Made by a program: the position numbers and the translations under genes. The notes below the pieces were generated by a model. The model was not told the origin of the DNA, ran no database searches, and worked only from the letters and a program-made list of their open reading frames with translations. A stretch of 45,127 nt of DNA from a virus (taxonomy: Duplodnaviria > Heunggongvirae > Uroviricota > Caudoviricetes): positions 1 to 45,127 of the IMG/VR virus record IMGVR_UViG_2778261231_000002; one strand, given 5' to 3'. Every line of letters begins with the position of its first letter. The first letter of the stretch is position 1. Below are positions 33,973-34,904 of the stretch, in pieces.

Positions 33973-34025
33973 ATCAATAATCGTTGATCTCGCGTTTTTA
34001 TTATGCACTAATCTGTACATGTACA
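33973..34025 (+). promoter_or_regulatory. palindromic operators upstream of antitoxin gene
   Basis: ATCAATAATCGTTGAT at 33973-33988 and TGTACATGTACA at 34014-34025. Confidence 0.45.
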
Positions 34026-34036
34026 GAGAGGGTGCC

Positions 34037-34450
34037 ATGAAAATCATTACTTACACGCAAATGCGATCGGATTTATCTGCAACGCTGGACTGTTTACGCT
34101 CTGGTGAAAGCGTCACAGTTACGCAGCGCGGAAAGCCCGACCTTGTCATCAGTGCAAAATCAGTTGATGAAATCGCTTCCGCAGATGAGGTAAAAACATC
34201 TGCGAAAACAATAGACACGCATCTTGCGCAATTAATTGCATCGAATTTGTCACCACAGATAACGGAGGGTGTCATGAAGCTTACTAAGCAATTGGATGCC
34301 CTTCTTCAGTCTGATGAGGCTCGCCAGACTATGATGAAGGCCACTAATGCAGCAGTTGCTTTGCAGGGCGTGTCTGAGTCATTTATCAAAGCTCTGCAAC
34401 ATACTCAGACCAAGCATGCGGACATCATAAAAAAACTGGAAGATAAGTAA
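34037..34450 (+). CDS. Phd/YefM-family antitoxin with C-terminal extension
   Basis: MKIITYTQMRSDLSATLDCLRSGESVTVTQRGKPDLVISAKSVDE matches Phd/YefM N-terminal pattern; GAGAGGG RBS. Confidence 0.6.
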   Translation: MKIITYTQMRSDLSATLDCLRSGESVTVTQRGKPDLVISAKSVDEIASADEVKTSAKTIDTHLAQLIASNLSPQITEGVMKLTKQLDALLQSDEARQTMMKATNAAVALQGVSESFIKALQHTQTKHADIIKKLEDK

Positions 34451-34857
34451 TGACTGAGATTACATTCCTTTCGGTAGATGAGGTCATCGCTATTCAGAAG
34501 AGCACATTGCCAAATAGCGGACAACCAGACCGGGGAAAACTCGAAGGTGCCCTCAATCGCGTCGATAACTTACGCATGTATGAAGGATGTGAGGATTTAT
34601 TTAAATTTGCAGCTATGTACATGGTTGCGATAGCGAAGTCTCACGCTTTTAATGACGCCAATAAGCGAACGGCTTTCCAGGCCGCCAGCGTGTTTTTGCT
34701 TTTGAATGGCTATGAACTGAATACCTCAATGGAGTTAGTCAAGCTGACCATCTTTGCTGCTACGGGAGAGGCCGACTGCGATAACACTGCTTTGGCGCTT
34801 AAACTTTTGTCAGATTATAAGAATGAGCTGCTGGCAGATACGATAACTGGCTACTGA
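34450..34857 (+). CDS. doc: Doc (death-on-curing, Fic-fold) toxin
   Basis: HAFNDANKRTAF matches Doc motif HxFx(D/N)(A/G)NKR; start overlaps antitoxin stop. Confidence 0.75.
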   Translation: MTEITFLSVDEVIAIQKSTLPNSGQPDRGKLEGALNRVDNLRMYEGCEDLFKFAAMYMVAIAKSHAFNDANKRTAFQAASVFLLLNGYELNTSMELVKLTIFAATGEADCDNTALALKLLSDYKNELLADTITGY

Positions 34858-34879
34858 TAGCAAAAAGTAAATTGTACAC

Positions 34880-34904
34880 AACCCGCCGCCGAGCGGGTTT
34901 TTTT
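34880..34904 (+). terminator. rho-independent terminator after doc
   Basis: Stem AACCCGC/GCGGGTT then T7. Confidence 0.6.

Follow-up and report, generated by a model that had tools for sequence, protein, structure and literature searches.

The DNA analysed here is the IMG/VR virus record IMGVR_UViG_2778261231_000002 (Caudoviricetes, positions 1–45,127), and this whole 45,127-nucleotide stretch is referred to below as the window. Among its baseplate genes it carries a cassette of two plus-strand genes, the first of which (34037–34450) encodes an antitoxin of 137 amino acids (aa; MKIITYTQMR...KKLEDK) and the second, doc (34450–34857), a 135-aa toxin. A Shine-Dalgarno sequence, GAGGG (34028–34032, plus strand), lies 4 nucleotides (nt) ahead of the antitoxin ATG at 34037, and the antitoxin stop codon TAA (34448–34450) shares one base with the ATG of doc (34450–34452) in a TAATG overlap. 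In every related intact locus doc likewise lies directly downstream in the same orientation and overlaps or abuts the antitoxin stop. The two proteins are named in RefSeq/PGAP as a Phd/YefM antitoxin (WP_001515093.1) and a death-on-curing toxin (WP_001515094.1). We consider it highly probable that they form a functional, self-regulating type II toxin-antitoxin pair of the Phd/Doc family and that the cassette is a moron that brings a promoter of its own and occupies, in a lambdoid Enterobacteriaceae prophage of the myovirus type, a variable cargo slot whose neighbours are the baseplate hub region and the spike gene. An earlier interpretation of this DNA, made without database searches (the sequence-only reading), had given the upstream protein 138 aa and proposed that it is translationally coupled to doc; the open reading frame (ORF) is there but is one residue shorter, and the TAATG overlap of antitoxin stop and doc start agrees with the proposed coupling.

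By its family scores, the toxin is a clear member of the Doc family. It reaches 81.3 bits against TIGR01550 (DOC_P1; curated cut-off, 38.65) and 45.4 bits against Pfam Fic (cut-off, 24), and it matches PHROG 577 ('Doc-like toxin') with an E value of 1.5e-33. Its best relative of solved structure is Doc of phage P1 (E 7e-20; 41% identity over 118 residues), and PDB entry 9vzc, which we take to be Enterococcus faecalis Doc, is matched at E 3e-10. The Fic/Doc catalytic motif HxFx(D/N)(A/G)NKR is intact, with H65-AFNDANK-R73 (34642–34668) aligning column for column with HIFNDANKR of P1 Doc and differing only at an x position. The somewhat longer HAFNDANKRTAF, in which the sequence-only reading had recognized the Doc motif, is indeed present as residues 65–76 and includes this catalytic part. 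When compared with copies whose synonymous sites are saturated (dS of at least 0.9), Doc has a ratio of nonsynonymous to synonymous substitution rates (dN/dS) of 0.02. From its homology with P1 Doc, it is predicted to be an active EF-Tu kinase.

It is by its N-terminal DNA-binding and dimerisation domain (residues 1–45) that the antitoxin is a member of the Phd/YefM fold family; on the curated sequence cut-offs it is marginal. Its best sequence match in the PDB is to P1 Phd residues 2–46, and a profile of 19 family members aligns in hhalign residue for residue with P1 Phd 1–45 at a probability of 92.5%. AlphaFold models residues 1–40 as beta-alpha-alpha-beta-beta with a predicted local distance difference test (pLDDT) score of 82–89. 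Among the Foldseek matches listed from the PDB, nearly all are Phd/YefM-fold antitoxins (Phd, YefM, VapB46 and the Mycobacterium tuberculosis RelB-type), and operator-bound P1 Phd leads them; the isolated P1 Phd DNA-binding domain superposes on the model with a root-mean-square deviation of 1.7 Å over 38 columns. Precomputed Pfam assignments place PF02604 in 66 of the 68 homologues found, the identical protein included. The hhalign result and the model bear out the Phd/YefM-like N-terminus that had been proposed from the sequence. The exact antitoxin protein is present on 506 contigs.

Upstream of the antitoxin gene we identified a candidate promoter. An extended −10 element, TGcACTAAT (34004–34012, plus strand), recurs as TGnGCTAAT or TGnACTAAT in six of seven aligned loci and in further loci, the Serratia locus having TTATT instead of CTAAT, and a candidate −35 hexamer, TTGATC (33984–33989, plus strand), lies 17 nt upstream of it, with its TTG and its position kept among the relatives (TTGCTC, TTGCTA, TTGACT). 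The call was made by eye and from the conservation of the extended −10 element across relatives; a strict sigma-70 scan found no promoter, because the C at position 2 of the hexamer fails it.

The perfect 16-bp palindrome TCTGTACATGTACAGA (34012–34027, plus strand), with two abutting TGTACA hexamers, is the only perfect palindrome of at least 16 bp in the 45-kb window. Its 12-bp core, TGTACATGTACA (34014–34025), has a chance expectation of 0.06 even with one mismatch allowed, and was found unchanged and beside the −10 element in each of the 15 examined loci whose antitoxin has the DNA-binding domain (33–100% protein identity). We aligned the upstream regions of loci from Escherichia coli, Klebsiella, Pectobacterium, Pantoea, Serratia and Xenorhabdus, which have antitoxins 45–100% identical and lie in different genomic places. 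Their order is a TTG-type −35, a 17-nt spacer, the extended −10, TGTACATGTACA, the Shine-Dalgarno sequence and ATG, and across genera the core keeps its position with respect to both −10 element and start codon. The same 12-mer occurs in Morganella, Enterobacter mori, Lelliottia and viral contigs, usually with two to three more palindromic bases on each side. Because its core is unchanged in all relatives bearing the DNA-binding domain and always stands just after the extended −10, TCTGTACATGTACAGA is very probably the operator. In a Xenorhabdus lineage from which the DNA-binding domain was deleted in frame and in which the promoter was kept, the site has decayed to TGTACACATACA (loci L022–L024), a natural control that comes from one lineage only. 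Together, the invariant core beside the −10 element and its decay upon loss of the domain offer strong comparative support for the predicted autoregulation of the operon.

The sequence-only reading had placed two palindromes at the promoter, one of which, TGTACATGTACA, is the core of this conserved 16-bp palindrome. The other, ATCAATAATCGTTGAT (33973–33988), does not stand as a second operator. It consists of 5-bp arms around a 6-nt spacer, and about 36% of random 60-nt stretches of the window hold an equal repeat; it is kept neither in an 82%-identical E. coli relative nor in more distant ones, where only the TTG of the −35 is conserved. The candidate −35 overlaps the right arm of this non-conserved ATCAA-N6-TTGAT repeat. 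A perfect 12-bp palindrome within the antitoxin gene, GCAATTAATTGC (34228–34239), is not conserved in the 82% relative either and is probably due to chance.

The one unusual part of this otherwise largely ordinary pair is its long, modular antitoxin. In the family alignment, residues 1–35 and 116–137 (FxKALQHTQTKHAxIIKKLEDK) are invariant or nearly so, and residues from about 38 to 115 are variable, with insertions and deletions. Selection differs in the same manner, the dN/dS being 0.06–0.09 in the N-terminal domain, 0.16–0.27 in the middle and 0.02–0.03 in the C-terminal motif. AlphaFold leaves residues 44–59 disordered, followed by three low-confidence helices and then a better-supported helix at 114–136; the pLDDT of the middle is 45–65. 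None of the Pfam, NCBIfam or PHROG families matches the middle, and beyond residue 45 these collections, a PDB sequence search and hhalign against P1 Phd gave no known match. Enterobacter mori, Lelliottia and a number of viral contigs have an unrelated, partly beta-like middle between the same head and tail. As judged from the alignment and from dN/dS, the extra length is thus a variable segment of about 70 residues, roughly residues 46–112, that separates the conserved DNA-binding domain from an invariant 22-residue motif, and not the C-terminal extension of about 60 residues that the sequence-only reading had described.

The C-terminal module also occurs alone. Five Xenorhabdus genomes contain a 56-aa ORF that corresponds to this module and overlaps an intact doc of 134–136 aa, and a HMMER search with residues 73–137 against 1.84 billion cluster representatives returned ten clusters, all of the same family and including stand-alone forms of 56 and 58 aa. 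Natural forms without the DNA-binding domain beside an intact doc imply that the short module can stand alone. Because the motif is invariant and occurs by itself (56–58 aa) beside intact doc, the 22-residue C-terminal helix is very probably the element that neutralises Doc. As it is predicted to be helical and is invariant within its family, its function may be analogous to that of the toxin-binding segment of Phd.

The slot that holds the cassette is bounded on the left by a plus-strand gene (33604–33954) for a 116-aa protein with the signal peptide MKKLILMIACSSFVLAGVAHA, a member of PHROG 3443 (function unknown), and on the right by the baseplate spike gene (34916–35656, plus strand), whose product has a gpV-like N-terminal domain and an Apex motif. 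The placement of the cassette inside the tail module, as given by the sequence-only reading, is therefore correct: it sits in the baseplate operon between these two genes. More generally, the family scores, the Phd fold match, the invariant operator core and the RefSeq names uphold the earlier view of a Phd/Doc-type cassette with an operator in the tail or baseplate module. Related prophages of E. coli, Klebsiella, Pectobacterium and Pantoea have the cassette in the same slot, and a Serratia prophage has it between the Q and terminase genes. In related prophages the position to the left of the slot is always taken by a small gene of variable size (102–232 aa).

An intrinsic terminator, AACCCGC-CGCCGA-GCGGGTT followed by seven T (34880–34906, plus strand), has a 7-bp stem (34880–34899) with five G-C pairs and ends 9 nt before the start of the spike gene at 34916. 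It is kept in all relatives that have the cassette in the tail slot. The same AACCCGC...GCGGGTTTTTTT, together with the ribosome-binding site of the spike gene, also follows unrelated cargo in two E. coli prophages, 730V1 and C236-04A, which speaks against its being the cassette's own. Since one terminator stands after all cargoes, it is the right-hand boundary of the slot and not private to the cassette. Of the strong terminator that the sequence-only reading had assigned to the cassette at 34880–34904, the hairpin and T-run are thus real, and its ownership by the cassette is not, as prophages with other cargo have it in common. The slot of 730V1 encodes a 210-aa (L003, 4476–5108) and that of C236-04A a 53-aa (L004, 4250–4771) hypothetical protein, and neither cargo has a match in Pfam or PADLOC. 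The C236-04A slot appears by eye, from the sequence only, to contain an additional ORF on the opposite strand.

Morons of lambdoid late operons, such as HK97 gp15 and lambda bor and lom, are promoter-gene-terminator units between structural genes that the lysogen expresses and that are read through when Q antitermination operates. The cassette resembles them in being such a unit between late structural genes and differs in that its cargo is a toxin-antitoxin pair and its terminator a shared feature of the slot rather than one brought by the cargo. The pair was found in only five of 5,426 complete E. coli genomes. In a collection of 50,697 phage records the antitoxin had no match at the DNA level or by tblastn, and none of the isolated phages there carries the cassette, Doc matches in that collection being at most 45% identical.

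We propose the following mechanism. Doc would be a Fic-fold kinase that, by homology to P1 Doc, phosphorylates EF-Tu and halts translation. The 137-aa antitoxin is predicted, from its anatomy and from comparison, to dimerise and to bind the TGTACA|TGTACA palindrome through its Phd-like N-terminal domain; as the palindrome shares its first base with the end of the −10 element and spans the likely transcription start, bound antitoxin would repress the operon. The invariant C-terminal helix of 22 residues would keep Doc inactive, with the middle of about 70 residues acting as an exchangeable spacer, and the TAATG overlap would couple translation of doc to that of the antitoxin. In the lysogen, the cassette is presumably transcribed from its own promoter up to the slot terminator. 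Read-through of late-operon terminators by Q antitermination is established lambdoid biology, and the presence of a Q antiterminator gene in the window leads one to expect late read-through here, so that during lytic growth Q-modified transcription would pass the terminator into the spike gene. The most likely pay-off would be protection of the lysogen of the abortive-infection type, retention of the prophage, or both, triggered when the antitoxin supply fails. Both genes are under strong purifying selection, with synonymous sites saturated.

Compared with the Phd/Doc system of P1, the window pair has the same gene order and overlapping stop and start codons, a Doc with 41% identity and the very same catalytic core (HxFNDANKRTA), an antitoxin N-terminal domain that corresponds one to one to Phd 1–45, and a probable GTAC-core operator directly downstream of the −10 element. 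In P1 the Phd sites TGTGTACACA and GAGTACAC lie about 13 bp apart, right after TATAAT, whereas the TGTACA hexamers of the window abut, at 6 bp from centre to centre. The antitoxin has 137 aa as opposed to the 73 aa of Phd, and its region after residue 45 is without detectable similarity to the Doc-binding C-terminus of Phd. In addition, P1 is a plasmid prophage, whereas the window cassette resides in the baseplate operon of an integrated lambdoid prophage.

The E. coli YefM-YoeB system shares the DNA-binding fold and a TGTACA hexamer core that overlaps or adjoins the −10 element. The core of the YefM operator is TGTACA, with two cores 12 bp apart (PMC1802561), and a change in the hexamer spacing perturbs cooperative binding (PMC4803016). 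Here, unlike in YefM-YoeB, the hexamers touch instead of lying 12 bp apart from centre to centre, and the partner toxin is Doc and not a RelE-fold RNase. It looks as if the recognition code has been conserved and the geometry has not.

Ernits et al. (2023) have established experimentally that Phd-C fused to Panacea is a portable, linear Doc-neutralising element, and that Phd-C works without its usual N-terminal domain, as a SUMO fusion (PMC10440598). The antitoxin described here is similar to those proteins in that it combines an accessory or DNA-binding domain with a short helical neutralising element, as suggested in this case by the natural forms of 56–58 aa. It differs from them in that the candidate neutralising motif is not recognisably Phd-C by sequence and in that the N-terminal domain is Phd-like and not Panacea. 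The chromosomal Phd-Doc of Enterococcus faecalis, which departs from the P1 paradigm and has a single palindromic operator (NAR 2026; PMC13034048), is like the window pair with its single probable operator in both respects, but the N-terminal domain of its antitoxin is an AbrB/MazE-like beta-dome, whereas the window antitoxin is modelled with the P1 Phd fold. Our literature searches turned up no publication dealing with this subfamily of long antitoxins or with the baseplate slot.

Several observations weigh against the interpretation as a functional, self-regulating Phd/Doc pair. The antitoxin falls slightly short of the curated cut-offs, with 28.5 bits against Pfam PF02604 over residues 1–38 (cut-off, 29.8) and 20.2 bits against TIGR01552 (cut-off, 20.8). 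Its C-terminal motif was considered as a homologue of the Doc-binding helix of P1 Phd, but the ungapped score was equalled or exceeded by 4210 of 5000 shuffles; a hand alignment pairing F56 with F116 and L70-V71 with I130-I131 (Phd/antitoxin) is not significant either, hhalign aligning residues 1–45 only. In PADLOC, the antitoxin has no match and Doc matches candidate families only weakly, most strongly PDC-M59B (E 1.9e-6). The hexamers abut at 6 bp where the known operators have 12–13 bp, and the stoichiometry of binding may therefore differ from that of known models. Lastly, the toxicity of Doc and its neutralisation, DNA binding by the antitoxin, and EF-Tu as the target are each predictions.

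Among the alternatives to this interpretation, one concerns the number of products of the antitoxin gene. An internal in-frame GGAGG-N5-ATG (G GAG GGT GTC ATG; 34264–34276, plus strand) precedes Met80 with 58 codons left and is a candidate start for a form without the DNA-binding domain. It is conceivable, although we would not count on it, that the gene makes two antitoxins and that the 58-aa form started at Met80 buffers Doc without repressing the promoter, in a partly three-component-like arrangement. At seven loci with otherwise saturated synonymous sites, the GGAGG is invariant at synonymous positions while neighbouring third positions vary; the residue before the Glu varies (T, R, K or A) with its codon always ending in G, and the Glu codon is always GAG. 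The third base is invariant at only 9 of the 65 codons, which cluster at the GGAGG and upstream of the doc start, the ribosome-binding site at the latter serving as a positive control. The motif does encode a conserved Glu-Gly-Val-Met, so that constraint at the protein level explains part of this conservation, and the internal Met is missing in the most distant members (Pantoea, the long forms of Xenorhabdus, and Morganella). On a metagenome scaffold (L038, 1–580) the 5' half of the antitoxin gene has been lost and replaced by an unrelated ORF, and the gene call is a 58-aa product that begins exactly at the equivalent of Met80, followed by an intact 135-aa doc and the spike gene. Xenorhabdus species (L020–L024, L036) also carry 56-aa stand-alone versions beside intact doc, which speaks for a short form; these versions, however, begin about eight residues ahead of the equivalent of Met80, and their origin is an in-frame deletion and not a start at Met80. 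An origin of these forms by recombination between two similar ribosome-binding-site repeats is not supported, as their start retains the long form's initial four codons and joins some eight residues before the Met80 equivalent, which makes it a different in-frame deletion. If a nested gene of this kind exists, a repressor-antitoxin together with an internally initiated 58-aa form would split buffering from repression, and along with the middle segment and the abutting-hexamer operator would follow a logic other than that of P1 and YefM; we offer this only as a tentative suggestion. The middle might, in another reading that we hold to be rather unlikely, be a sensor of a phage or stress signal that releases Doc, its swaps reflecting an arms race. 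Replacement of the middle by unrelated, partly beta-like segments between constant ends, a dN/dS 3–10 times that of the flanking parts, and the sensory role proposed for the accessory domains of Panacea antitoxins (PMC10440598) would all be compatible with a sensor. The dN/dS of the middle is nevertheless well below 1, its AlphaFold confidence is low, it matches no family or domain, and natural middle-less forms coexist with intact doc.

Another question is what the pair is for. P1 phd-doc, to which the pair is most closely related among characterised systems, is the addiction system of a plasmid prophage, and the window pair may conceivably serve mainly in the same manner, as an addiction or stabilisation module by which cells that lose the prophage region are killed by long-lived Doc, rather than in anti-phage defence; on balance, we find this role on its own unlikely. 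That prophages of E. coli, Klebsiella, Pectobacterium and Pantoea have kept the cassette at one baseplate position while the antitoxin diverged to 47% identity fits long-term co-inheritance. An integrated prophage, however, is not lost by mis-segregation and so offers fewer occasions for post-segregational killing; sister prophages with other cargo in the slot and the rarity of the pair among complete E. coli genomes look more like turnover of accessory genes, and several toxin-antitoxin families are known in phage defence (PMC10440598). It is very improbable that the pair is a dead remnant without any function today, considering the intact catalytic motif of Doc, its dN/dS of 0.02 at saturated dS, the conservation of promoter, operator, ribosome-binding sites and gene overlap across genera, and the 506 contigs with an identical antitoxin. 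A functional, self-regulating Phd/Doc pair carried as a moron thus remains our preferred interpretation.

The remainder of the window is in line with a lambdoid prophage that has a contractile tail; the names of the context genes come in part from the PGAP annotation of a near-identical prophage in E. coli ECONIH5. We identified a CI-like S24 repressor (6784–7488, minus strand), the Q antiterminator gene (13792–14280), genes for tRNA-Asn(GTT) and tRNA-Thr(TGT) (14372–14527) that immediately follow the Q gene and precede the lysis genes, a contractile tail sheath of the DUF3383 family (27045–28535) and, after the tail-fibre genes, a tyrosine integrase (39535–40698, minus strand). The prophage also holds an antirepressor, lysis genes, head genes and baseplate genes. 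The integrase is followed by several ORFs on the minus strand and a second protein of the S24-peptidase (LexA/CI-like) type (43511–44185, minus strand), and the region 39535–45127 may mark where a second integrated element, adjoining the prophage, begins. Outside the window, the ECONIH5 prophage has an insertion of about 13 kb in its head-gene region (L013, 22598–35181) that carries two integrases, a TOPRIM/DUF927 primase, an Icd-like protein, a TumE-family toxin-antitoxin gene and IS5, and resembles a satellite or integrative element residing within the prophage.

Since both genes have already been named in RefSeq, the cassette adds little as a Phd/Doc pair, and its mechanism is expected to follow that of P1 Doc. 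Its interest lies in other respects. The touching TGTACA hexamers do not fit the 12–13-bp spacing that underlies the cooperative-binding models of YefM and P1. If the internal start is real, one gene would yield two antitoxin proteoforms, a case that lends itself to simple testing. The conserved cargo slot with a shared terminator, in a widespread lineage of enterobacterial prophages, is a useful place to seek other lysogen-expressed genes. Finally, the antitoxin is a clean natural case of modularity, in which the head and the 22-residue tail are conserved and the middle has been swapped or deleted among lineages.

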